64,000 nt of DNA from Myxococcota bacterium (lineage in GTDB: Bacteria; Myxococcota_A; UBA9160; UBA4427): positions 3,136,001-3,200,000 of the forward strand of contig OZ252299.1 in assembly GCA_965250285.1 (NCBI GenBank), written 5' to 3'. The translations under genes were made by a program, and so were the position numbers. Numbering within the stretch: position 1 is the stretch's first letter; every line of letters begins with the position of its first letter. This document shows, one piece after another, positions 50,878 to 64,000 of the stretch. The notes below the pieces were generated by a model. It did not search any database. It saw only the letters and a list, made by a program, of their open reading frames with translations, and had not been told where the DNA came from.

Positions 50878-51000
50878 TCGAGCACCAGACCAGATTCGAA
50901 CGGTCGTCCCCTGCCCACATCCGTCCGCCGCCGCACGCTGTGTCGGCGCGCTCATCCGATCTGCTCGCTCATCGCTCGCAGATCGCCCTCACGTTGGCAT
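50878..51000 (-). mobile_element. Degenerate tRNA-Gly 3'-half fragment with insert (att-like copy A)
   Basis: Collinear with copy B at a 216-bp offset; GTTCGAATC T-loop. Confidence 0.6.
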
Positions 51001-51048
51001 GCCTTAAGCGCACGGGCCTCTAGCCCAAAACCGGCTTCGAGCTCTGGA

Positions 51049-51093
51049 TACAAAAACGGCCCGCCCCACTACGTGGGACGAGCCGATTTTGTA
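51049..51093. terminator. Long bidirectional rho-independent terminator directly after the tRNA-like CCA
   Basis: TACAAAAACGGCCCGCCCCAC-TAC-GTGGGACGAGCCGATTTTGTA. Confidence 0.75.
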
Positions 51094-51216
51094 TGGAGCA
51101 CGAGACCAGATTCGAACTGGCATCCCCTTCGCACACCAGACATGCCGTTCCGGCATGTCCGGCGCGCTCATACGATCTGCTCCCTCATCGGTCGCAGATC
51201 GCCCTCAAGTTGGCAA
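51094..51216 (-). mobile_element. tRNA-Gly(GCC)-like 3'-half fragment with ~78-nt insert (att-like copy B, probable island end)
   Basis: Minus strand: TTGCCAA anticodon loop ... GCCAG-TTCGAAT-CTGGT T-arm, CTCGTGC-T-CCA; no 5' half upstream. Confidence 0.7.
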
Positions 51217-51800
51217 AGCGAAAGAAGCGTGAGGGAGGACAGACACTTACGCTCTCGAGTCGGCAGATCGCGGCAGGGGATGACACTCAGCGGCAGCAGG
51301 CACGTCACCGAACGGCTAGACGTCACCTTACTGCGACCGCCCACACCCTCTGGGAGGGTCCGATCACACTCCCGATGACACTCCCATGGACCGGAGCGAC
51401 GACGCAGCCGGCCAGGCCGATTGGCCCTTTCGACCGTTCTGTTAGGATCGATCTGATCAGATCGAGCGGGATCGGAACGGCGGAGTCCACTCGACCCGAC
51501 TGCCTGGCAGTGTCGGCGAATGCCCTCTCTCGGGATGCTCGTGCGCTCGCGGAGGCCCATCGCGACGTGTCCCGCGCATGCCGCCGCCTTGCGATCGATC
51601 TCGTGCTTGGAGGTCAGGGGCGCTGGCCGGAGCGAATCCGGTATGGCCATCGACTGCGAAAGTTCCGAGAACTCCACGTGAAGTTCTCGGGCTGACGAGC
51701 ATCGGGACTCGGTCCGCCCCCGTAACAGCTGGTTCCTTGCCACGGAACCCTGTACCGACCCGCCGGAATCGAAGACGAAGACCTGGACAGGCACGACTCT

Positions 51801-54497
51801 ATGCATCAAGAACTCCTGAGAACGAAGCTCAATCCCCCTGGTACCGGCAGCCTCCATTTCCGGCGCGAGCGCCTGGTTCGCATCCTGGAAGCGGGTGCGA
51901 GCGATCCTTTCGTGCTCGTCTCGGCGCCAGCCGGCTTCGGAAAGACGACGCTGGTCAGCGACTGGCTCTCGTCATGTGACCGGCCGCATGCCTGGCTGTC
52001 GATCGACGAGCGCGACGGCGACCTCCGGCAATTCCTCAGATACATCGTGGCGGCAGTTCGGACGGCCATTCCCGATGCCCTGCCAACGATGGCGCTGACG
52101 GTGCGAGATTCGCCGCTCCCTCCCGTCGACACGCTGTGCACGACCCTCAGCAACGAGCTCGAAGACCTCGACACACCCATCACTCTGGTGATCGACGACT
52201 TTCATCGCCTCGGGTCGTCGCCCGTGCATGAACTGATGGCCGAGATCGTCACCCGGCCACCCCGGCCGCTCCGGTTGATCCTGATCTCGCGCTTCGACCC
52301 CCCGCTTCCGCTGGCGACATTGCGGGCCCATGGATGGAACACGGAGGTCAGAGCAGAGGATCTTCGCTTCACCCGCAGCGAGTCTGCGCATCTGTTGCGC
52401 GAGCTCGCAGGGGGGGACGTGGGCGATAATGCCCTGGGCAACCTGGAGCATCAGAACGACGGCTGGGCGGCCGGGCTCCAGATGATTGCGGTCTCCCTGC
52501 GCGGCCGCGACGACGCGGATGCCTACCTGCGGAACCTCCAGATCGGGCAGAAGTTCGCCCGAGAGTTTCTGGCGCGCGAAGTGCTCGACGTACAGTCCGA
52601 AGATCTGAGAAACTGGCTGCTCAGAGCCTCCATCGCCGAGCGCTTCTGCGCACCTCTCTGCGAGGCCGTTCAGGATCCGAACGAAAACCAAGCCTCGGGG
52701 ATGAGTGGCGAGGACTTCCTCGCAACGCTCGAGGAACGCGGCTTGTTCGTCATCCCCATGGATGCGACCGGGCGATGGTATCGATTTCATCACCTCTTCC
52801 GCGACCTCTTGCGCTCAGAGCTCGCTGCGCGCTGGAACCCCGAGTCGATCACCGAGCTGCACGAGCGTGCGAGTCGCTGGTTCGCCGAGCAGGGCCTCGT
52901 CGAAGAGGCGCTGGATCACGCGCTGATGCTGGGTGACCCGGCGCTGGCGGTAGAGCTGGTCGCCGAAAACCGACACGCTGCAATGAATCAAGAGGACTGG
53001 CACCGCCTGGGTGCATGGCTCGACCGGCTGCCGGCTGGCAGCGCCACGTCGGATCCGAGGATCATGCTCGCCCGTGGCTGGCATCTCTGCCATATCCCGC
53101 GATTCGAGGAAGCCCTCTCGCTGATCGAGGATGTACGCGCGCTGCCCGCCGAAACACGGGCGTGTCACCGCGGCGTCGAGGGCGAGATCGAAGCGATGGA
53201 TGGCCTGCTCGGCTACATCGGCCAGGGCGTCTTTGGTCGGGACCGCGAGAGAGTCATCCGTCACTGCGAGAAGGCGCTGCTGCAACTCCCAGCAGACTTC
53301 GGGTGCATCCGAGGCTATGCGACCTATTTCCTTTCCTTGTCGCACGCTCTAAGCGGCCAGGGCGAGACGGCTCGCACCATTCTCTGGCGGGCAATGGAAG
53401 AGGACAGTGCGACCGGTGCCGCCTGTCAAGCTCGCGTCCGGAGCGCCCTCGCCCACGTCCTCTTCCGGGCGGGCGACTTGAGGGGGACGCTGGTCGCAGC
53501 ACAACAGCAACTCGACGTGGGGAGTACGCATGACCTCCCTGAAACAGTGCAGATGGCGCGGTCCACGTTGGGATGGTCTCACTATCTGAGGGGTGAGATC
53601 GACCAAGCCGAGGAGCACTTCAAGGCAGGCTCAGCCGCCATCGGAGCCTCGACGCCGGCTCCTCATGCCGAGAGCCACATCGGTCTCGCGCTCAGCAAAC
53701 GGGCTCGGGGAGACGGCGTCGACGCACGCGAGTCCATCGCGTCGCTCACCGCCTCGGCCATCGCGCGCGGCGCGAGCGCCTGGATCGAACACGGGCGCCT
53801 GTATCAGGCCGAGATCGCTCTTCTCGACGGACGGACAGCGGAGGCTCAGGCGCTGCTGAAAGGGATCGAGAAGCCACGCGCCTTCGGCTTCTACTACGAC
53901 GCGGAGCTGACGATCGCGAAGGCCCGCCTGGCAGATGGCGGGGAGGCTGCTCTGAGCGAAGCGGTCTCGATGCTCGAAGCGATGCGACTGCGCCTGGAGG
54001 ACAGACACGACATCATGCGCCTCGGCCCCGTGCTGGCCGTCGAGGCGCTGGTTCATCGGGCCCTGGGTGAAGAGACCGCCGCGATCTCGTTCCTCGAGGC
54101 CTCACTCGCCGCAACCGAGATCGGAGAGGCCATCCAGCCCTACCTCGACCTGGGTGCGCCCATGGCTGCGCTGATGCGAGAGCTCCCTAGCCCGGCGTGC
54201 GACTCGGAACATGCTCGCCGAATCCTCGCGGCCTCGAGCGGCGAATCAGATGGGCAGCCTGCAACTACGGAAAGACGACATCGACCTGAAGAGACCGGAC
54301 TGATCGAGCCGCTCACCAACCGGGAGCTCGATGTTCTGGAGCTCCTGGCCGAGCGATATCGCGACAAGGAGATCGCCGAGAAGCTCGTCATCTCGCCCGG
54401 TACGGTCCGATCGCACCTGAAGCGCGTCTACGGCAAGCTCGGCGTGAGCGGGCGACGAGAGGCGGTGGCTCGGGCCCAAGGCCTCGGTCTCATCTAG
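51801..54497 (+). CDS. MalT-like STAND ATPase / LuxR-HTH regulator
   Basis: LLRTKLNPP, APAGFGKTT, LVIDDFH, WYRFHHLF, C-terminal LTNRELDVL...TVRSHLKRVYGKL. Confidence 0.93.
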   Translation: MHQELLRTKLNPPGTGSLHFRRERLVRILEAGASDPFVLVSAPAGFGKTTLVSDWLSSCDRPHAWLSIDERDGDLRQFLRYIVAAVRTAIPDALPTMALTVRDSPLPPVDTLCTTLSNELEDLDTPITLVIDDFHRLGSSPVHELMAEIVTRPPRPLRLILISRFDPPLPLATLRAHGWNTEVRAEDLRFTRSESAHLLRELAGGDVGDNALGNLEHQNDGWAAGLQMIAVSLRGRDDADAYLRNLQIGQKFAREFLAREVLDVQSEDLRNWLLRASIAERFCAPLCEAVQDPNENQASGMSGEDFLATLEERGLFVIPMDATGRWYRFHHLFRDLLRSELAARWNPESITELHERASRWFAEQGLVEEALDHALMLGDPALAVELVAENRHAAMNQEDWHRLGAWLDRLPAGSATSDPRIMLARGWHLCHIPRFEEALSLIEDVRALPAETRACHRGVEGEIEAMDGLLGYIGQGVFGRDRERVIRHCEKALLQLPADFGCIRGYATYFLSLSHALSGQGETARTILWRAMEEDSATGAACQARVRSALAHVLFRAGDLRGTLVAAQQQLDVGSTHDLPETVQMARSTLGWSHYLRGEIDQAEEHFKAGSAAIGASTPAPHAESHIGLALSKRARGDGVDARESIASLTASAIARGASAWIEHGRLYQAEIALLDGRTAEAQALLKGIEKPRAFGFYYDAELTIAKARLADGGEAALSEAVSMLEAMRLRLEDRHDIMRLGPVLAVEALVHRALGEETAAISFLEASLAATEIGEAIQPYLDLGAPMAALMRELPSPACDSEHARRILAASSGESDGQPATTERRHRPEETGLIEPLTNRELDVLELLAERYRDKEIAEKLVISPGTVRSHLKRVYGKLGVSGRREAVARAQGLGLI

Positions 54498-54513
54498 CCG
54501 AGCAGAGCGCCAC

Positions 54514-55504
54514 TCAGCTCCCTCCGAGCAGCGGGTTCCCGATGAGCGAAGGGATGACCGGGATGATGTCAAACTTCATCATCGCCACCTTGCCGAACGA
54601 GTCCGGGCTGACCACGGAATACTCGAGCCCAACGTTGATCCGCACTGGGAACTCACCGAAGTTGACCGTCTTTGCGACGCTGATCCCGACCGGCACGGTC
54701 CACTGCTCTCCCTTCGGCTCATTCGCGTTGAACGTGATCGTCGGATCGAACCCGATCTGCCATCCATCCTTCAGGTTGATGTTGAAGTAGTAGAGCATGC
54801 TGAGCTGGCTCAGTTCGGACTTCTGAGTCGGATCGAAGTCGTTTCGATCCGCGACGCGAAAGTAGTACTGCGGCCAGATGAACGCCGTGAAGTGCTTCGG
54901 CGTTGTACCCGAACGTCACGGTTGGTCCGACGCCGACCTGCTGCGACCCGAGCGCGTCATTCGTCGAAGACGGGAAGGAGAAGGTCGGGCCCACTCCGAT
55001 GATCCACCGTCCCGCCGGCGGCGAGACGACGAGTGGCAGCACGATGTCGCCCAGGCCGGCTGCCGACGTGAACTCATCCTGCGCGCCTGTCGGCACGGGT
55101 GTGCTGAGCGTGATCGGAATGACCGGGCGCGTGATCAGCCGCCACTCCTTCTCGCCCTTGCCATGGAGCGGGATCGGCAGTACAGGCTCGAAGAGCAGGT
55201 TGCCGCCGTACTCTGGCCCATCCTCGGCCACGTTCCCGTTGTTGAACGTGAGCTCGAACTCCGTGAACAGCGCCCAGATGTCTGAAGTCGGGTCTGCGAG
55301 CTTGCGGGCAATGTCTCCGAGGCCGCCGTGCTCGGGGTGCTTGTACTCCTTCTTCTCCGGCTTCGCGCCTTCTTGCGCTGCGGCCGCCTCGTCTGTCGCT
55401 CCGTCGGTCTCGGCAGCTCGTGCGACGGTGGCCAGCGCGGGTAAGAACAATAGGACCATCATGAAGAATGTGATCTTGATCCGCGGCTGAGCAGCGAAGG
55501 TCAT
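54514..55504 (-). pseudogene. Outer-membrane beta-barrel/transporter-like protein, frameshifted near 54895-54900
   Basis: Signal peptide, LADPT, FEPVLP, LITRP, GLGDI, GVGPT; continues in a shifted frame as KHFTAFIWPQYYF...WTVPVG...IIPVIP. Confidence 0.75.
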
Positions 55505-55598
55505 GAGGTGATCTCCGTCAGTTGGCCCTGCCGCGTCGGGCAGTGCGGACCATTTTCGACTCACGATGTCGGAGGTCGAGGCGTCTTCAGGACGGCGA

Positions 55599-55997
55599 TC
55601 AGCCGCTGCCCTCGACGAACGCCTTGAGCCGCGTCAGAGCCGCGCCCCAATGGGTGTTGCAGTACCCCATGCTGGGGTCGCCATCCTTCCACGCGCCGTC
55701 GCTGAAGTTGACGAGCGTGCCGCCATCTACGTCGGACAGCTCGAACGTGATCTTCTTGCCGACGTCGCCAGGCCCCTCGACTCCTTCCTGGACGAGTCGC
55801 GTGTCCTCGACCATCTCGAGGGTTTTCCAGGCAAAGCTGAGATGGGGCTTGGCCTTCATCGACACGGTGGCGCCGACGGCAATTTCGCCCTCGACCCCGG
55901 CGTAGTGCCACTTCTCGAAGTCGGTCACGTTCGTGAGAGCTTCGTAGACCTTGTCTCTCGGCGCGGCGATCTTGATCGTGTGGTGAAGCGTCGTCAT
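55599..55997 (-). CDS. SRPBCC/AHSA1 ligand-binding protein
   Basis: IKIAAPRDKVYEALT, GGTLVNF, CNTHWGAALTRLKAFVE. Confidence 0.85.
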   Translation of the reverse strand: MTTLHHTIKIAAPRDKVYEALTNVTDFEKWHYAGVEGEIAVGATVSMKAKPHLSFAWKTLEMVEDTRLVQEGVEGPGDVGKKITFELSDVDGGTLVNFSDGAWKDGDPSMGYCNTHWGAALTRLKAFVEGSG

Positions 55998-56008
55998 CGT
56001 GGATCTCC

Positions 56009-56251
56009 TCACTTCTTTCGCAGCGGGGGAATCGCCGGCATCATCGGAAAGTTGTCCAGGTCGTTCGGATCCAATTTGAACGTCGGGTCGTACTTGTCCC
56101 GGTCCGTCATGTAATCGGGCTCTGTGCTGCGGAAGGTGTAGTTGCAGGTCTTGCACATGTAGACGTCCCACACGCCCTTGACAGGCGACGAGAACACGAC
56201 ATCGAGCGTCTTGGAGCCGCAGCGGGGACAGATCGTGAAGGCATTGGCCAT
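56009..56251 (-). CDS. Non-oxidative hydroxyarylic acid decarboxylase subunit D (VdcD/BsdD-like)
   Basis: CPRC, SPVKGVWDVYMCKTCNYTFRSTEP, PAIPPL. Confidence 0.9.
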   Translation of the reverse strand: MANAFTICPRCGSKTLDVVFSSPVKGVWDVYMCKTCNYTFRSTEPDYMTDRDKYDPTFKLDPNDLDNFPMMPAIPPLRKK

Positions 56252-56263
56252 GGGTCGAGTCTC

Positions 56264-57709
56264 CTACTTGCTTGCGTTCGCGAGGTTCTGAATCAAGGCT
56301 TGCACCTTCGGCAGCCACTCCTCGGCTTCGGGCGGATTGTTGATCTGCATCGCGTAATCGCCGTGATCGTCCGGCGGGGCAGGTGTCGCCGCGTCCAGGA
56401 TGATCTTGTCTGTGATGCCGACCGGATCGGACCCCGGGTCGAGTGCGAGGACCGAGTGGTTCGGCACGACCATGCAGTCGAACCTGGGGTTGAACTTCGT
56501 CGACAGTGCCCACATGACCTGCGGCAGGTTGAAGGGGTCGACATCGGCATCGACGATGATGACCACCTTCGCGTAGCCGGTGCCGTGCGGTGTCTGCAGC
56601 ACCGACATCCCGACTGTCTTGGCGAAGCCGCCAACTCTCATCTCGGTCGACACGATCACCACCAGGCCGTGGGTATAGAGCGCGTTCACGTCGACGACTT
56701 CGGGGAACGAGTCCTTGAGCTGCACGTAGAGCGCGGCACCCGTGTTGATGAACATGTAGTCGATCTCGGTCCAGGGCATTCCGATCGCGCAGTACTCGTA
56801 GATCGGATTGTTCCGGTGATAGACCTTCTTCACGTTGACCGAGCACATGAGTCGACAGCCCGAAAGATGACCCGTGAACTCGCCGTAGGGGCCGTCGGGC
56901 ATTCGGACGCGGGGCAGCACCTCGGCCTCGATCACGATCTCGCTGCCCCAAGGCACCTGCAGGCCGTTTTCCATCGTCACCACCGGGTACGGTGCGCCAT
57001 CGGCCATGGCGCTGCACATCGTGTACTCGTCCTGGTCGTACAGCAGCGGCATGCTGGCGATCAGCGGGACGATCGGCTCGTTCCCCATGGTGATATAGAT
57101 CGGTAGAGGCTCGTTTCGCTCTTCGGCGGCCTTGAAGTGCAGCGCGATGTCGTGATCCGGCACCATCTGCATGCTCAGATGGTTCGTCCCCTGGACCTGG
57201 ATCCTATACATCCCGACGTTCTGATCGTCGAAGCTGTCCATGCGGTCGGGGTGGCGAGAGACGACCGAGGACTTGTTGAGGAAGAAGCCGCCGTCCCCCG
57301 GGTTCAGACGGAAGAGCGGCAACAGCTCGAACAGATTGACGTCGTCGCCTTCGATCACGTTCTCTTGCCAGGGCGCGCTGTCCATCTCTTCGATGCTGCC
57401 TTTCTCGAAGTTCTGGTAGCGGCGGTTGAACTCGCGCGCGATGTCCTTGAGCGGAGTGTCCTTCGGCATGCCGAAGGCGAGCGCGATGTTCGGCCACGAC
57501 CCGTGCACGTTCGACACGAGCTTGGCGTCGCTCGTGTACCCCTTGATGTTGTCGAAGGCGATCGCGGGTGCCGTGTCACCGACCCCCTTGTTGTTTGCGC
57601 TCAGGATCGCGGAGATGTCGGGTTCGGGCAGAACCGGATCTGTCATGTGAATCATCTGCCCTTCCTTTTCCAGTAGCTCGAGGAATCCTCTGAAGTCCTT
57701 GTGCGCCAT
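56264..57709 (-). CDS. UbiD-family prFMN decarboxylase, subunit C (VdcC/BsdC-like)
   Basis: NVHGSW, FRLNPGDGGF, NVGMYRIQV, DGPYGEFTGH, MPWTEIDY, DVDPFNLPQVMWAL. Confidence 0.92.
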   Translation of the reverse strand: MAHKDFRGFLELLEKEGQMIHMTDPVLPEPDISAILSANNKGVGDTAPAIAFDNIKGYTSDAKLVSNVHGSWPNIALAFGMPKDTPLKDIAREFNRRYQNFEKGSIEEMDSAPWQENVIEGDDVNLFELLPLFRLNPGDGGFFLNKSSVVSRHPDRMDSFDDQNVGMYRIQVQGTNHLSMQMVPDHDIALHFKAAEERNEPLPIYITMGNEPIVPLIASMPLLYDQDEYTMCSAMADGAPYPVVTMENGLQVPWGSEIVIEAEVLPRVRMPDGPYGEFTGHLSGCRLMCSVNVKKVYHRNNPIYEYCAIGMPWTEIDYMFINTGAALYVQLKDSFPEVVDVNALYTHGLVVIVSTEMRVGGFAKTVGMSVLQTPHGTGYAKVVIIVDADVDPFNLPQVMWALSTKFNPRFDCMVVPNHSVLALDPGSDPVGITDKIILDAATPAPPDDHGDYAMQINNPPEAEEWLPKVQALIQNLANASK

Positions 57710-57803
57710 CATCTCTACTCCCACGCAGTCACTTTGGATCGCTCTCGCTGCCGAAGCCGACGTTCGGCTTTTTCGAGTCGAGAGCCTTGTTCGTCGAGAA
57801 CGC

Positions 57804-57935
57804 CTATTGGTCGTCGAATCCCCACCGAGACCAGTTGTCGAGCACCTTTTGCTTGATCGGCTCGGGGATGTGGCTCGAGCGCGAGCCGCGCACGGTTCGG
57901 GATGGAGTTCGCTTCGAGGAGATCCTCTCGGCTCG
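57804..57935 (-). pseudogene. Remnant 3' end of an Fdc-like UbiD paralog
   Basis: Encodes PEPIKQKVLDNWSRWGFDDQ*, matching the 58789 gene's PDPVRQKVLENWSRWGFAK*. Confidence 0.75.
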
Positions 57936-57936
57936 A

Positions 57937-58347
57937 TCACCCCCCACCCTGCGCCTTCCATGCCGCCTCTTCGGGGCTGCCGGGGACGGGAAGGATCTTG
58001 CCCCCCTCGATGCAATGGCTTGCATCGACTTCGCCCATCACGATTTCGATCTCGCCGGAAGCACACCCGAGGGCGTCGGCGAACGCCTTGCGGATCCCGG
58101 TCTCGATCTTGGCCTTGTCCTCGTCGGTCCTTCCCGCGCGGATCGTGGCGTTCAGGTAGGCCAGCTTTCCTTCCGGCAAATCGGGGAACCCGACCTCGGG
58201 GTCGGCCTCCTCGGAGAAGAAGGCATTCACGAACTGGCGAGGGGCTCCCGTCACATCCACATGGGTCGTGAAGATCCCCTCGGCCATTCTCGAGCGCTGA
58301 TCCTCGGTGGTCGCGCCCGGTTTGACCGTCGTCAGATAGATCGGCAT
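57937..58347 (-). CDS. Tautomerase superfamily protein (cis-CaaD-like, Pro-1)
   Basis: MPIY start, THVDVTGAPRQFV, TIRAGRT, IEGGKILP. Confidence 0.85.
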   Translation of the reverse strand: MPIYLTTVKPGATTEDQRSRMAEGIFTTHVDVTGAPRQFVNAFFSEEADPEVGFPDLPEGKLAYLNATIRAGRTDEDKAKIETGIRKAFADALGCASGEIEIVMGEVDASHCIEGGKILPVPGSPEEAAWKAQGGG

Positions 58348-58392
58348 GAGTCTCCCCTCTCGGTCCGGATCGGGTCCGGACATGTCGGCGCT

Positions 58393-58704
58393 CTAGGTCG
58401 TCACTGTGACTTCGTTCGAGTCGACCCCGGTCTTCTCGACCCACAGGTCACTGAGCGACTTCAGGAGCTTCACACGGTCGTCGTAGGCGATGTCGTTCGG
58501 GACGTCGCAGCGAATCACGGTCGTCGTGCTGGGGTTGCCGCCGGTCCAGGCGAAGCCCTGGTCGACGGACCGCCAGAAGACGGGCGTCGAGGCTGCGTCC
58601 TGACCGAACTGGTCCACCGCGATCCTCTGGATGCCTTCCACCAGCTCGTGTTTTCGCGCGTCGGCCGCCTGGCCCCCTTGGACCAGCACTCGATACTTGG
58701 TCAT
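58393..58704 (-). CDS. Tautomerase-fold protein lacking Pro-1
   Basis: MTKYRVLV...RKHELVEGI...FAWTGGNPS...LWVEKTG, two beta-alpha-beta units. Confidence 0.55.
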   Translation of the reverse strand: MTKYRVLVQGGQAADARKHELVEGIQRIAVDQFGQDAASTPVFWRSVDQGFAWTGGNPSTTTVIRCDVPNDIAYDDRVKLLKSLSDLWVEKTGVDSNEVTVTT

Positions 58705-58788
58705 CTGTGTTCTCCTTGGAGTCGGTCCGCCTTCGTGCCGAGCCACTCGTTCGAGTGACTCGGCACGCGCTACAGCGGTCGTCGAGCT

Positions 58789-60315
58789 CTACTTGGCGAA
58801 TCCCCATCGTGACCAGTTCTCGAGCACCTTCTGCCGGACGGGGTCCGGGTAGTTCGTCTCGAAGGTCAGGATGTTCTCCAGCTGCTGCCCGGTCTTGCCT
58901 TCGATGGGCAGGCAGCTGTACGCCGTCAGGCCACTGCCGTGGATGAAGTCGCTCTGGCTGTGATAGGCCTCGAGCCCCGTCCCGACGACGTTCTCGATCT
59001 CGGGGAAGTAGAACGTGCTCCGCGTCGGGTGATTCCGGGTCGCGAAGGCCCAGCACACCTCGAGGGCGCTATCGGGATCGACGTCCTCGTTCACCACGAT
59101 GATCTTCGTGGTGATGTTGCCCACGTGCTGCGACCAGAGCGTCGTGCCGATCTTCCGGACGAACTCCTCCATGCCCAACCCGGTCTTCTGATGCCAGTCG
59201 TTGTCGACGCGAATGACCAGCCACGCCAGGGCAGACTCCATCGTCAGCATGCTGTCGATCACGGGGAGCCCCTCCTTCTGCAAGGCGACGGTGACGTCGC
59301 CCGACATGAAGAAGCCCATGCCGACGGTGCACGAGTCGATCGGCTTTCCCGGCACCGAGACGGGGAAGAGCGGGTTGTTGCGGTACGTGACGTGGGTGAC
59401 GGTCACCCGTGCGCGGTTCGCCGTATCGAAGGGCAGGTAGCCCTGATACTCGCCGAACGGCCCTTCCACCTCCATCGCATCCTTCGAGACGAAGCCTTCG
59501 AGGACGATCTCGGAATCGGCCGGCACCAACAGGTCGTTCGTGTCGCACTTGACCATGCGGATGCCTTCGCCGAGCAGCCGGCTGGCATAGTCGTACTCGT
59601 TCGTGAAGTCGGGCGCCTTCGCCGACGACTGCGTGAGAACGACCGGCGGCACACCGAACGCCATCGCCCACGGCGTGTCCTGCCCTTCCTCGGTCCACTG
59701 ATCGTGCACCATGCCGTTGTGCTGCGAAGAGAGCCAGAGACCCGTCATCGTGGTCTCGTTCACGATCATCGCGCGATTGATCGACCAGCTCGTCCAGCTC
59801 TCGTCTGGAGTCCGAACGATGTTGACGCCCGCGGTTCCGATGTAGCGAGCAGCGTCGCCGTCATGACAGAGCGGCGCGGGGATCTTGTAGATGTCGATCT
59901 CGTCGCCGGTCCACGTGTTCTCCTTGCACGGCGCATCCGACGCATCGACGATGACCGGCTCGTGCACCTCCGTGCCCTCTCGAGCCTCGAGGTACGCCTT
60001 CTGGATGTCCATCAGGCCGGTTTCGGGCGGAAGGCCGAGCATGGCCGCGAGGCGGCACCACTCCCGCCCTGGCGTGCTCGACTTCGTGTACCCGATGTCG
60101 CAGGCGCGGAAGCCTTCGCCCTCTGGCGTGCCCTTGATGTTGTTGAAGATCGGCGTCGGAGCCAGCGTCTCGTAGGAGTGACGGCAGACTGCACCCATCT
60201 CGAGATGCGTGTCGATCTCGTCATCGATCTCGACCGCCTCCCCCATCTTCTTGAGGTTCTCGATGTATTCGCGATAGGTGCGCGGGATCTTTGCTCGGTC
60301 GATCGAAACTGACAT
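58789..60315 (-). CDS. UbiD-family prFMN decarboxylase (Fdc1-like)
   Basis: HDGDAARY, WSINRAM, LLVPADSEIVLEG, EGPFGEY, WAFATRNHP, NWSRWGF. Confidence 0.92.
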   Translation of the reverse strand: MSVSIDRAKIPRTYREYIENLKKMGEAVEIDDEIDTHLEMGAVCRHSYETLAPTPIFNNIKGTPEGEGFRACDIGYTKSSTPGREWCRLAAMLGLPPETGLMDIQKAYLEAREGTEVHEPVIVDASDAPCKENTWTGDEIDIYKIPAPLCHDGDAARYIGTAGVNIVRTPDESWTSWSINRAMIVNETTMTGLWLSSQHNGMVHDQWTEEGQDTPWAMAFGVPPVVLTQSSAKAPDFTNEYDYASRLLGEGIRMVKCDTNDLLVPADSEIVLEGFVSKDAMEVEGPFGEYQGYLPFDTANRARVTVTHVTYRNNPLFPVSVPGKPIDSCTVGMGFFMSGDVTVALQKEGLPVIDSMLTMESALAWLVIRVDNDWHQKTGLGMEEFVRKIGTTLWSQHVGNITTKIIVVNEDVDPDSALEVCWAFATRNHPTRSTFYFPEIENVVGTGLEAYHSQSDFIHGSGLTAYSCLPIEGKTGQQLENILTFETNYPDPVRQKVLENWSRWGFAK

Positions 60316-60445
60316 TCTGGAAGGTCTCCATGGTTCGAGTTGCGGTGAAGGGGCAGCGGTACCGCCGGGCCGTCCGGTCGGTCACGCCAGGTAGTCGTTC
60401 TCCACGACGGCCGGGCGTATGCCGTGTCGAGGAGCTCACGCGTCT

Positions 60446-61111
60446 TTACGCTTCTTCCCGCGATGCGAGGGACCGAGTGGACTCCTCGAAGTCGTTCGTT
60501 TCGGCCTGCCAGTCGCGGCCGTTCTCTCCTCGCTGCTCGCGATGCAACCGACCGCCTTGCCAGCGGTTGACGACACCCGGGTCGATGTCGAACAGATCGA
60601 GCACACGACCCACGCTGTGCAGCACCTGGTCGTCGATCGTCTTCGGCTCGTTGTAGAAGGCCGGCATCGGCGGCGAAATGATCGCGCCCATCTGCGCCGC
60701 TTCGTACAGCAGCTTGCAGTGGCCAACGTGGAGCGGGGTCTCGCGCACCATCAGCACGAGCTTTCGCCGCTCCTTGAGCACGACGTCGGCTGCGCGCACG
60801 AGCAGGCTGTCAGCGAAGGAGTTCACGATGCCCGAGAGCGTCTTGATGGAACACGGCGCCACGATCATTCCGTCCGTGTGGAACGAGCCGCTCGAGATCG
60901 CGGCGGCCTGATCCCGAAAGTTGTGGACGACGTCGGCCTGGGCCTCGACTGCCTTCGCCGAGTAGGGTGTCTCGATCTCGATGTTCTGCTTCGCGTGCGG
61001 ACTCATGACGAGGTGGGTTTCGACGGAGGGGTCCGTCGCGAGTACCTCGAGCATGCGCGCGCCATAGACGACGCCCGATGAGCCTGACATACCGATGATG
61101 ATTCTCTTCAC
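60446..61111 (-). CDS. ubiX: Flavin prenyltransferase UbiX/Pad1
   Basis: GMSGSSG, ISSGSF, APCSIKTLS, RAADVVLKERR, RETPL, PPMPAFY. Confidence 0.96.
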   Translation of the reverse strand: MKRIIIGMSGSSGVVYGARMLEVLATDPSVETHLVMSPHAKQNIEIETPYSAKAVEAQADVVHNFRDQAAAISSGSFHTDGMIVAPCSIKTLSGIVNSFADSLLVRAADVVLKERRKLVLMVRETPLHVGHCKLLYEAAQMGAIISPPMPAFYNEPKTIDDQVLHSVGRVLDLFDIDPGVVNRWQGGRLHREQRGENGRDWQAETNDFEESTRSLASREEA

Positions 61112-61911
61112 ACGTCGCTCCTCTCTCTGTGGCCCGCCGGCGCCTGCGCGCTGCTCAAGGCGACGCTGATCAAATCGCCGTCGACGATGCCGAGTTCATC
61201 CCGCACGCCGGCCTCAGCGATGACTTCGATCTGGTCGGCGGGGTAGTCTTCTACGTCGGGCAACACGATGGCCGCGCGCCCGATCGAGTGGATCTCGACG
61301 GGGAAGCATCGGGCGCCGCAGCTCTCGGCCTCGTCGCTCGGCGGGTCGATGGGGATGCCTGGCGTTGCTCGCAGGCCGCTCCAGATCGCGCGTGATTGCG
61401 CATCCACCAAACGTGCGTTCAGGGTGCCCGGGTGTGGATCGATCCCGAGCTTGCCGACGAGCTCGGCGCGAACCCAGTCGAGTTGCGTGAAGCCACTGGC
61501 GACGCCCGCGCCGGTCACGACGCGGCCACAGATCGTTCGATGTGCGGCCTCGGACTGGTCTGCCCACTCGAGAAACGTGACCGGGATGCCGTCTGGGTCA
61601 CGAAGCTGGAAGACGCGAGCGCCCCACGACGTCATCTCGGGCGGTGGCGTATCGAGCCCCAGGCGAAGGTGCGCCCCCACGGCGTCTTCGACTTCGATCA
61701 CGAGATGAAAGCGTTCGCCCGGCGAGTGGATCGCGAGAGGAGAACGCTCGCGGCCATTGTCGAGCACCTCGAGGGTCATCCCGCCGAGGTCGAAACGTTG
61801 GCCTCGGCCATTCGCGCGATCCCACTCCGCGATGAGCGGAAGACGAAGCGTGTCGCCGTAGAACTCGACGACTGCGTCGAAGTCGTCTGTCGCAAGGGCG
61901 ACGTAGCTCAT
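61108..61911 (-). CDS. VOC domain fused to CTP-dependent riboflavin kinase (DUF120/archaeal-type)
   Basis: N-half YVALAT...FYGDTL...SWGARVFQLRDPDG; C-half GRVVTGAGVASGF...LGIDPHPGTLN...IEVIA...RDELGIVDGD. Confidence 0.82.
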   Translation of the reverse strand: MSYVALATDDFDAVVEFYGDTLRLPLIAEWDRANGRGQRFDLGGMTLEVLDNGRERSPLAIHSPGERFHLVIEVEDAVGAHLRLGLDTPPPEMTSWGARVFQLRDPDGIPVTFLEWADQSEAAHRTICGRVVTGAGVASGFTQLDWVRAELVGKLGIDPHPGTLNARLVDAQSRAIWSGLRATPGIPIDPPSDEAESCGARCFPVEIHSIGRAAIVLPDVEDYPADQIEVIAEAGVRDELGIVDGDLISVALSSAQAPAGHRERSDV

Positions 61912-63029
61912 GCCGACATCCTTCGTTCGGCGCCCGCATCGAGCGTGTCGAGCGGTGAAGCGCACATCGGCAGGACCTCTTCGATCAGCAGCCGCTCGCT
62001 TCGCTCCCACTCGGCGCGCTCGGCCGTCGCGTCGTAAGCGACGCTCAGAAGGGTTCCGAAGCCCCCGGTCTTCGACTGCAGCTCCGAGATCGACTCCGCC
62101 ACGGTCTCGGGCGAGCCAACGAGCCAGATGTGGTCGGCGAGATACTCGAGATCGATCGCTTCATCGGGGATCGAGGGCTCGGTCTTCAGCAGTGGCCCGA
62201 GGCCCAGGCCGAGGTAGACCGGCAGGAGAAACTCGCGCCAGCAACGTCCCATCATCCCTTCGATGGCGAGCTCGCGCGCCTCCGCGTCCGTGGGCGCAAC
62301 GTAGACGTCGCGCACGACCCGCCAATCGTTACGGTCGGCGACGCGACCGACCGCAGCAGCCCCCTCTGCCACGGTGTCCCAGTGCTTCGCGGTCTCTTCC
62401 GGATCCGGGCCAATGCTGAGACTGACGGGGATGTACCCGCGCTCCCCGGCAAGTCGGTGGTTCGCCGAGCCTTGCGTCATGCCCGCGATCGCGATCGGAG
62501 GATGGGGCTGCTGCAGCGGGGTGACGTGGTACCCGAGCCCCGCGATATCGCTCTGGACAGCGCCCATCGACCAGAACTCGCCCTCGGTGTCGCCATCGCC
62601 GTGAAGCCAGAGGCGCGTCATGAGGTCGAGCGCCTCGAAGGTCATGCGCCGATTGCGTCCGAACTCATCTCCGAGCGCGAAGAGCTCACGGTCGGAGGGC
62701 AAGGCGCTGATCCCGACCCCGAGCTGGTAGCGGCCCTCGGCCATGTGATCGAGATACGCGACGCGATGTGCGAGCTCGACGGGGTGGTGATACGGGAGCA
62801 GGTGACCGAGCGGGCCGAGCCGAATGCGTTCGGTGCGCTGAAGCGCCTGCGCGATCAGGAGATCGGGCGCCGGGCAGGGCTCCCAGGGCGCGGTGAAATG
62901 CTCGCCGATCCACGCCTCGGTGTACCCGAGGCGATCGAGGCGCTCGAGCTCTTCGAGGTCGGCGAGCTGGCCCTCCCGCATGCTTCGTTCGGGGGGATGA
63001 GACGGCATCAGCAGCGCACCAAGCTTCAT
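61908..63029 (-). CDS. LLM-class flavin-dependent monooxygenase (limonene monooxygenase-like)
   Basis: MPSHPP, AWIGEHFT, LPYHHP, LDHMAEGR, WLVGSPETV. Confidence 0.9.
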   Translation of the reverse strand: MKLGALLMPSHPPERSMREGQLADLEELERLDRLGYTEAWIGEHFTAPWEPCPAPDLLIAQALQRTERIRLGPLGHLLPYHHPVELAHRVAYLDHMAEGRYQLGVGISALPSDRELFALGDEFGRNRRMTFEALDLMTRLWLHGDGDTEGEFWSMGAVQSDIAGLGYHVTPLQQPHPPIAIAGMTQGSANHRLAGERGYIPVSLSIGPDPEETAKHWDTVAEGAAAVGRVADRNDWRVVRDVYVAPTDAEARELAIEGMMGRCWREFLLPVYLGLGLGPLLKTEPSIPDEAIDLEYLADHIWLVGSPETVAESISELQSKTGGFGTLLSVAYDATAERAEWERSERLLIEEVLPMCASPLDTLDAGAERRMSA

Positions 63030-63284
63030 TTCGTGCTCCTCGTCGTCACGCCGCTCATGAGATCTCTTCACCCGGATGAATCTCGACGGCGTCCAGATCC
63101 GGGCAACGACCTGCGATCGATGCGACGCATCCAACCCCTCATTGCCTTGGTGGCGAAGTCGCTCGAAAGGAGAGCCGAAGGGTCTTGCGTCTCGATCGGC
63201 GGACACACTAAGTGCCGCCTACCTGAGTGACCTGCCCGGAAACTGGGGAATTTTGAGGGAATGGGTGCGCGCGCAGGACGACGG

Positions 63285-63527
63285 CTATTCGATGACGATG
63301 ACTTCGACGATCGGCAGGTGCAGGTCGTGCAGCGCATTGAGCACCCCGATGAGCTGCGACTGGTCGGCCACTTCGCCCTCGAGGGTGGACACGGGTGGGT
63401 GACCGTCAGACGTGACCCTCGAGATCTTCAAGCCGGCGACGAGGGGCCGCATCGCGGGATCGAACCAGCCATCCACGACGATCCGATAGTGACCCGGGTT
63501 CCACATGCGTTGGCTCGGTCGCTGCAT
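63285..63527 (-). CDS. Small ACT-like hypothetical protein of the type often found beside MalT-like regulators
   Basis: YRIVVDG...STLEGEVADQSQLIGVLNALHDLHLPIVEV. Confidence 0.7.
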   Translation of the reverse strand: MQRPSQRMWNPGHYRIVVDGWFDPAMRPLVAGLKISRVTSDGHPPVSTLEGEVADQSQLIGVLNALHDLHLPIVEVIVIE

Positions 63528-63830
63528 GCCTCGCCCCCGCGCTCGTTGACGCAACACACGTCGAGGTCAGGCGTCGCACCCTGAAAACGGGACGCGCACT
63601 CGTCCCGGCAGTGCACCGCGCACCTGGAGCCGCATCGCCCTACTACGACGACCATTCGAATCTAGTCGCGCACCTGAACGCCGGCCTCTCCTGTAACCGG
63701 ACAATTACTGGGTACCCGGCTCCTGGCCATGCACCGAAGACCTGACAAAACTGATGGGTTCGCGAAATCGATCTCGAGTAGTTCGACATCGGCCGGTGAC
63801 ACGGACTTTTGCTGGAGTACTGTGGTTCTG

Positions 63831-64000
63831 ATGGAGCCCGCCCCCTTCGGTCCTGCAGCAAACGACGAAGCCAACCGACTCAGTCGGCCGGGCGAAGAAT
63901 GGGTCGTTCTGGTCAACGAGCGCGACGAGCAGATCGGCGTGATGGAGAAGCTCGATGCGCATCGCGATGGAGGGAGGCTCCATCGCGCGTTCTCGGTGTT
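63831..64000 (+). CDS. idi: Isopentenyl-diphosphate delta-isomerase type 1, N-terminal part
   Basis: Not in ORF track. Translation: ...EEWVVLVNERDEQIGVMEKLDAHRDGGRLHRAFSV. Confidence 0.88.
   Translation, partial: MEPAPFGPAANDEANRLSRPGEEWVVLVNERDEQIGVMEKLDAHRDGGRLHRAFSV

Follow-up and report, generated by a model that had tools for sequence, protein, structure and literature searches.

A glyoxalase-fold domain fused to a RibK-type riboflavin kinase domain in a UbiX/UbiD gene cassette of a myxococcotal genomic island

Introduction

The RibK type of riboflavin kinase is described as restricted to archaea in the accessible text of PMC5397151. What is the function of such a kinase in a bacterium, where it is joined to a glyoxalase-fold (VOC) domain and encoded directly ahead of ubiX? 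We have studied this in a stretch of 64,000 nucleotides from a Myxococcota genome (hereafter the window). The question touches a wider one, that of the supply, protection and oxidative maturation of prenylated FMN (prFMN) in vivo, on which the application of UbiD enzymes to carboxylation and decarboxylation depends. The cassette offers three small, expressible candidates, i.e., a luciferase-like monooxygenase (LLM), the VOC domain and the RibK-like kinase, together with natural controls with and without the kinase. It also strengthens the view that the supposedly archaea-only kinase has a broad bacterial branch which prFMN systems have taken up and in which the flavin pocket is altered.

The features of the window that concern us are these.

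50880..64000, no strand: left part of a lower-GC island of ~23 kb (GC content, tRNA-Gly repeats)
55599..56012, minus: SRPBCC/AHSA1 ligand-binding protein (Pfam)
56009..57679, minus: VdcC-like UbiD (613.8 bits, under the cut-off of 650) and VdcD (profile)
57937..58701, minus: pair of genes of the tautomerase superfamily that related cassettes do not conserve (Pfam)
58789..60315, minus: UbiD decarboxylase of the Fdc1/HudA branch, 508 aa (family match, structure relatives)
60446..61111, minus: UbiX flavin prenyltransferase, its start overlapping the stop of the fusion (family match)
61108..61560, minus: linker, RibK-type kinase domain (residues 126-252) and short disordered tail of the fusion (Pfam, PDB alignment, residue table, fold)
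61561..61911, minus: VOC (glyoxalase-fold) domain of the fusion, residues 1-117 (Pfam, alignments, fold)
61908..63029, minus: LLM, 373 aa, its stop overlapping the VOC start (family matches)
63831..64000, plus: first part of a type 1 isopentenyl-diphosphate isomerase (IDI) gene, transcribed away from the operon and continuing to 64436 (198.8 bits against a cut-off of 127 for NCBIfam NF002995)

The minus-strand genes thus read LLM, VOC-RibK, ubiX, Fdc1/HudA-like ubiD, two tautomerase-like genes, vdcC-like, vdcD and SRPBCC.

Results

A single gene encodes both domains

The sequence 61108-61911 on the minus strand is a single open frame of 267 codons and a stop; the remaining two minus frames contain 9 and 3 stops. 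A preliminary description had read it as one ORF with a complete VOC domain followed by DUF120 kinase motifs, and a Pfam analysis of the architecture agrees. Residues 3-111 match Glyoxalase (PF00903) with 37.7 bits against a cut-off of 20.6, over profile positions 4-119 of 121, and residues 131-251 match CTP-dep_RFKase/DUF120 (PF01982) with 89.5 bits against a cut-off of 25, over positions 1-120 of 121. The C-terminal half therefore does match the profile of the CTP-dependent riboflavin kinases, and both expected motifs are present, as G129-R-V-V-T-G134-A-G136-V-A-S-G-F141 and L155-G-I-D-P-H-P-G-T-L-N165.

A stop or frameshift separating the domains was sought in contigs from three runs that cross the junction (at most three samples from one study, one of them possibly the source of the window). 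No stop and no indel was found, and the sole difference among these contigs within the fusion is a synonymous change at codon 196. Since the junction is intact in the contigs and the domain pair recurs in homologues, an origin by frameshift or chance read-through is rejected. We also rejected a longer in-frame GTG start at 62010, which lies inside the LLM gene; homologues begin at the same Met-Ser-Tyr. The ATG at 61911 overlaps the LLM stop (ATGA) and the fusion stop overlaps the ubiX GTG (GTGA), by four bases each. The invariant Ser2 is not relied upon as a catalytic N terminus, because all 42 intact VOC starts read (A/G)TG-AG and overlap with the upstream TGA would force such letters.

The AlphaFold model of the fusion alone contains two separately folded domains (mean pLDDT 83), the relative orientation of which is undefined given a pTM of 0.53. 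Both expected folds are recovered, with Z = 16.8 against RbkR (5TRD), 16.4 against RibK (2VBV) and up to 13.6 against VOC proteins. A sequence search of the PDB likewise returns T. acidophilum RbkR (E = 1e-9) and M. jannaschii MJ0056. The VOC-RibK fusion is thus confirmed to be real.

The kinase domain has an altered flavin pocket

The kinase domain shares its fold with the archaeal RibK MJ0056 (2VBV) and the kinase of RbkR (5TRD/3CTA), with Z = 16.4-16.8 and rmsd 2.6-3.3 Å (for 2VBV, Z = 16.4 and 2.6 Å over 130 aligned residues of the RibK barrel). Also shared are the GTLN motif, Gly-rich loop, catalytic Glu, Pro/Tyr lid and xR-xx-L cytosine loop. Unlike these proteins it is bacterial, only 25-26% identical to them, accessory to RibF, and preceded by a VOC domain where they carry a wHTH or nothing.

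Residues G134, G136, T163, N165, P218, Y223, E229 and R237 of the fusion align with RbkR G102, G104, T131, N133, P185, Y190, E195 and R203, for which the accessible text of PMC5397151 gives roles in the CTP site and lid, with E195 as the proposed base. L164 likewise matches the CTP site, beside G134, G136, T163, N165 and R237; GTLN occupies residues 162-165 and the cytosine loop is V236-R237. The conservation of the Thr and Asn across the fetched kinase loci is partly imposed by the search pattern. Relative to RbkR there are substitutions of G106 by Ala, L202 by Val, Y128 by His and Y109 by Phe. The third Gly of GxGxG is A138 in the fusion; it is Gly in 21/23 fused domains, and Ala also in 44/114 unfused bacterial members. 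The motifs GTLN, GxGEG, LRxxxL and PxxT are described in the accessible part of bioRxiv 10.1101/2021.04.15.440061, and the Thr of PxxT is not retained. The domain also scores below the NCBIfam equivalog cut-offs, at 76 against 279 bits and 41 against 168 bits.

Two further departures are found around the flavin ring. Tyr115 of RbkR, termed absolutely conserved in the text available from PMC5397151, is replaced by V147, and all 137 bacterial sequences have Val or Ala here, preceded by an invariant Trp (W146; 137/137). The F165 site is S197 in the fusion, Asp in 19/23 fused domains, and Phe or Trp in 67/114 unfused bacterial members. The next residue, Cys198, is invariant in the bacterial domains, so that W146 and C198 mark the clade. 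The archaeal flavin contacts Tyr115 and Phe/Tyr165 are therefore both absent from the fusion, which lowers our confidence that this is an archaeal RibK, and not that it works like one. Judged from its sequence, the domain looks catalytically intact with a remodelled flavin-ring pocket, and riboflavin is the likely substrate. The kinase probably provides, in addition to RibF, a further supply of FMN for UbiX and the LLM, which both use it as substrate.

Could the specificity have shifted further? The kinase might instead re-phosphorylate prenylated riboflavin, salvaging dephosphorylated prFMN, or convert prenol into DMAP for UbiX. The loss of two ring-contacting aromatics and the gain of W146 and C198 would fit such a change, as would the presence of RibF in the hosts and the repeated fusion of this clade to HAD phosphatases, PNPOx-like domains and UbiX. 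However, F141 of the flavin/ribityl site is retained along with P218, Y223 and E229, and the frequent Phe or Trp at the F165 site of unfused members also counts against a shift. Moreover, His165 of the island UbiX, at its beta-phosphate site, occupies the position of H164 in O157 UbiX and Q203 in A. niger UbiX. The O157 enzyme uses DMAPP, although this residue is not the sole determinant (PMC6541611, accessible text). The IDI gene near ubiX further lowers the need for a prenol kinase. We consider a shifted specificity improbable.

The VOC domain lacks a complete metal site

Folded alone, the VOC domain gives a model with pLDDT 86 and the paired beta-alpha-beta-beta-beta modules. Its nearest solved relatives by sequence are the glyoxalase I-like proteins 3L7T and 2P25, by comparison with which the metal-site positions are Y3, E48, H69 and T112. 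Only two of the four His/Glu/His/Glu ligands are thus kept. Position 3 is Tyr in 48/48 sequences, position 112 is Thr or Ser, and H69 is replaced by Gln in 3/34. A classical metalloenzyme role is therefore unlikely.

The top structural match of the isolated model is TnmS3 with riboflavin (5UMX; Z = 13.4, rmsd 2.1 Å, 107 residues aligned), within 1 Z of SMU.1112c, GloA2, TnmS1, TioX and E. coli GloA, a tie that includes metal-dependent VOCs. With the metal-free sequestration proteins (TnmS1-3, TioX and the bleomycin- and mitomycin-binding proteins) the domain shares a single-chain two-module fold, an incomplete metal site and conserved Trp, Tyr and Phe. The existence of a TnmS3-riboflavin structure is taken from the title of 5UMX, and sequestration of tiancimycin by TnmS proteins from the accessible text of a review (PMC6804068). 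Against the comparison, the identity is ~20%, the setting is UbiX/UbiD and not antibiotic biosynthesis, and the structural score is tied. A search of the ESM Atlas gave generic VOC clusters only.

A ligand-binding role is nevertheless plausible. Our tentative proposal, to which we give slightly less than an even chance, is that VOC dimers hold a planar flavin between Trp, Tyr and Phe and join the LLM in conveying reduced (prenylated) flavin to UbiD or conditioning it. This is in line with the earlier suggestion that the VOC module might bind or mature flavin or prFMN. The invariant residues of the domain are W30, R36, E48, D51, E73, W96 and F101. The invariance of E48, D51, E73 and R36, as in a catalytic site, counts against a pure carrier, and the VOC may perform metal-free catalysis.

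The conserved unit is LLM-VOC-ubiX

We fetched 160 loci, comprising the best 80 of 222 genome hits and the best 80 of at least 570 metagenome hits. This VOC is present in 47, fused to RibK in 23 and standing alone in 24 (122-124 aa; one cut off). The LLM lies directly upstream in 37/39 VOC loci with room for it, and ubiX directly downstream in 41/45; several of these loci are near-copies, so the counts are not independent. The coupling to ubiX that had been noted earlier is thus upheld, both by the overlapping stop and start and by recurrence, while the equally regular LLM upstream had been overlooked. Nor is the fusion the functional core, since 24/47 cassettes have the same VOC standing alone. 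The kinase is optional, and the conserved unit is LLM-VOC-ubiX(-ubiD), with the kinase inserted at the VOC/ubiX junction.

The cassette occurs in several phyla. A relative of the SRPBCC gene follows ubiX in six cassettes with a stand-alone VOC, and in one locus (L120) the kinase is encoded on its own, behind ubiD. Na+/H+ exchanger genes adjoin the cassette in L002, L004 and L090, and a carbonic anhydrase gene lies inside that of L004, hinting at pH/CO2 handling tied to decarboxylation. In Aliiruegeria haliotis (L007:9698-10684) the fusion lacks the first ~40 residues of similarity, has no LLM, and lies beside an integrase-bearing element.

LLM and VOC are conserved despite exchange of UbiD

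Does the LLM-VOC pair act on a particular substrate or on the cofactor? The cassette UbiDs are of two kinds, one Fdc1/HudA-like and the other nearest to structures 6H6V/6H6X, which we take to be HmfF. We compared 13 loci, nine of Fdc type and four HmfF-like. Between the two kinds, mean identity falls from 71 to 26% for UbiD and from 76 to 57% for UbiX, and only from 78 to 73% for the LLM and from 68 to 66% for the VOC. That LLM and VOC are equally conserved despite the exchange of UbiD favors a role on the cofactor side over one on a specific substrate. Both UbiD branches include heteroaromatic decarboxylases, however, so that a shared substrate class may exist.

The nearest solved relative of the LLM is 3,6-diketocamphane monooxygenase (E = 7e-58), and the protein is 43% identical to the product of a gene annotated as limonene 1,2-monooxygenase. 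It belongs to the same branch as these (4UWM and the limonene type) and keeps E43/H44 and the HLLPxxHP motif. Unlike them, the cassette LLMs form a tight clade of their own, with at least 119 other clusters at 69-75% identity. Among more distant LLM relatives (36-59% identity), none of the 33 loci found in 800 sampled genomes contains VOC, RibK, ubiX or ubiD within 1.5 kb. Every cassette-linked LLM was reached through the VOC, and the association is therefore counted from VOC to LLM and not from the LLM clade to VOC. A 580-aa LLM (P0213) considered as a UbiX fusion was rejected.

VOC-fold enzymes that open epoxides are known, e.g., FosX. In an alternative reading, LLM and VOC are catabolic enzymes. 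Decarboxylation of an acrylic or heteroaromatic acid by UbiD would be followed by an oxygenation catalyzed by the LLM, either an epoxidation or a reaction of Baeyer-Villiger type, whose product the VOC would open or isomerize by means of Glu48, His69 and Tyr3. This would agree with the relatives of the LLM, the Fdc1/HudA-like character of the first UbiD and the invariant polar residues of the VOC. Yet the exchange of UbiD for a subfamily 26% identical is accompanied by little divergence of LLM and VOC, and the VOC lies between LLM and ubiX in overlapping frames and not after ubiD. Nor does any dehydrogenase, flavin reductase, transporter or other catabolic gene recur among the fetched cassettes. 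We regard this alternative as unlikely, though a serious competitor, and extend the same judgment to its corollary, in which the kinase does no more than boost FMN and owes its fusion to its position.

A bacterial RibK clade lies beyond the VOC cassette

The kinase class had been taken to be mainly archaeal, with bacteria normally using RibF. A RibF-type flavokinase was found in all six kinase-bearing genomes tested (one split by a stop), and the fusion is accordingly rejected as a replacement for RibF. The class is not rare in bacteria, however. A distinct bacterial RibK clade spans many phyla, and its genes frequently lie near ubiX/ubiD or genes of aromatic degradation. Among 113 kinase loci with no VOC, 34 have ubiX or ubiD in the fetched DNA and 15 adjoin ubiX (two of these probably being cut-off VOC fusions). 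With one or two ubiX/ubiD clusters per genome, we estimate that chance would give a few percent. The remaining 79 have neither gene in the fetched DNA, and many lie in other aromatic-catabolism clusters.

Two further arrangements are independent of the VOC. A natural UbiX-RibK fusion of 328 aa (L125:212-1195) matches Flavoprotein with 145.6 bits and PF01982 with 109.4 bits, and the phenylphosphate carboxylase operon of Azoarcus KH32C has the order ubiD-ubiX-DUF120-Nudix, with the kinase gene between ubiX and that of a Nudix hydrolase. Together with the 15 adjacent loci, these independent ties to UbiX support the link to prFMN.

Other partners are also seen. RibK-HAD fusions make up 61/120 among the matches listed (L015, L016, L039 and others; P0058-P0120). 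As a pairing of kinase and phosphatase they resemble the plant FMN hydrolase-riboflavin kinase, with the order reversed and a non-homologous kinase. In Chloroflexota (L017:3721-4587 and L029:9989-10858), RibK is joined to a PNPOx-like FMN-binding barrel beside molybdoenzyme and CoA-ligase genes. Alphaproteobacterial stand-alone RibK-like genes (L014, L019, L024, L045 and others) lie in clusters with FAH, mandelate racemase-like, amidohydrolase and Rieske genes, with no ubiX or ubiD in view in the fetched DNA.

A possible role in the supply of prFMN

The explanation that we prefer, and hold to be about evenly balanced against all others together, is that the fusion is a two-domain accessory of a mobile UbiX/UbiD cassette, serving prFMN supply. 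IDI on the island would provide DMAPP. The C-terminal kinase would phosphorylate riboflavin, or a close flavin derivative, with CTP, topping up FMN, and UbiX would prenylate FMNH2 to prFMNH2, which is its established chemistry. For the N-terminal VOC we predict a metal-poor domain that binds flavin and partners the LLM. The two may then take charge of the reduced, oxygen-sensitive flavin as it passes to UbiD, much as LpdD and PhdC do with other folds; this step is the least certain. The fusion may go back to the in-frame insertion of a stand-alone kinase gene at the VOC/ubiX junction, and would then reflect co-expression and not obligatory channelling. Counting against this explanation are the altered flavin pocket, the Ala in GxGxG, the tied TnmS3 match, the relatedness of the LLM to monooxygenases of organic substrates, and the 79 kinase loci with neither ubiX nor ubiD.

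Small helper proteins of prFMN have precedent in LpdD, a prFMNH2 chaperone, and PhdC/YclD, a prFMN maturase; the accessible text of PMC10865409 and PMC13040415 describes no VOC, LLM or kinase helper. Like these, the domains studied here are small, are encoded beside ubiX/ubiD and could raise the level of holo-UbiD. Their folds differ, since LpdD is Pba3-Pba4-like and PhdC HpaC-like, and neither fold is present in the fusion. A bolder reading would make LLM plus VOC(-RibK) a third system of prFMN supply and maturation, unrelated to LpdD and PhdC. Oxidation of prFMNH2 by O2 on the LLM barrel would yield the active iminium, and VOC dimers would ferry the cofactor from UbiX to whichever UbiD is present. 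The CTP-dependent kinase, remodelled as it is, would make FMN or rescue dephosphorylated prFMN, the unit plugging into unrelated UbiD subfamilies across phyla. We think this unlikely.

Distribution and origin of the fusion

About 80 database clusters share the VOC-RibK architecture, with 47 full-length homologues at 46-55% identity among the matches listed. A search of longer proteins with the VOC alignment gave 85 hits (the query included) among the matches listed, 81 with PF01982 and none with a UbiX, UbiD or LLM family fused to the VOC. Named carriers include Verrucomicrobiales, Rhodospirillales, Aliiruegeria, Halopseudomonas and Okeania; no full-length fusion was found on plasmids in 72,556 records. 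Some members bear the NCBI label 'DUF120 domain-containing protein'.

VOC-RibK is thus a recurring architecture built of two known families, and apparently undescribed. In mostly openly readable papers we found nothing on the VOC-RibK fusion, the LLM-VOC-ubiX cassette or a bacterial RibK beside UbiX. Similar searches, again of mostly openly readable papers, found nothing linking prFMN maturation with riboflavin kinase, TnmS3 with riboflavin, or phenylphosphate carboxylase with riboflavin kinase. A term check of the accessible text of phenol and aniline papers (PMC7500099, PMC5946492) gave no mention of riboflavin.

In quick trees the kinase domain of the window falls outside a clade of 12-18 other fused domains; an AU test did not reject a single origin of the fusions (p = 0.45). 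The copy in the window sits on a long branch (0.72-0.81), and its sequence differs from the consensus of the family at 137-140, 150-151 and 197. Has it then decayed into a weakened or non-catalytic flavin-binding appendage, the fusion being a neutral passenger? The divergence of the copy and the lack of a kinase in about half of the cassettes might suggest so. All invariant catalytic positions are intact, however, and the ~80 clusters keep the full domain at the identity given above, making decay very improbable.

The cassette lies on an integrated island

The cassette is carried on an island of ~23 kb with a GC content of 62-67%, compared with 68-74% in the flanks. The island ends at a tRNA-Gly(GCC) gene (window-equivalent 73892-73967), and 91-93% copies of the tRNA 3' region are present at 50880-51215. 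Lower GC content, the tRNA end and these copies together indicate an integrated island. In fact several tandem copies of the tRNA-Gly(GCC) 3' region (81-93%) occur at both island ends, at 50880-51215 and at window-equivalent 73478-73967 (G000:C1:3209478-3209967), suggesting repeated integration at this site.

PF01982 was found in just one of 60 relatives of the host, as a distant form (29%), and the kinase as a native gene of the host lineage is therefore rejected. The host RibF-type flavokinase is encoded elsewhere in the genome. A tblastn search found no other ubiX or ubiD in the host genome outside the island. A host that otherwise appears to have no prFMN system is thus given a complete one by the island.

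Also on the island are a pair of MalT-like LuxR regulators that are 50% identical, and a small protein of 73 aa that is present twice (64%), at 51801-54497 and 63285-63509 of the window and at window-equivalent 65257-68681; a MalT-like gene precedes the cassette also in L104 and L109. About 1.44 Mb from the start of the window lies a second tandem pair, paralogous to the tandem tautomerase-like genes of 57937-58701 (42% and 36%). Lastly, 54514-55564 contains two overlapping minus-strand ORFs of 281 and 94 aa with no Pfam match, which look like one gene for a membrane or secreted protein, split near 54790.
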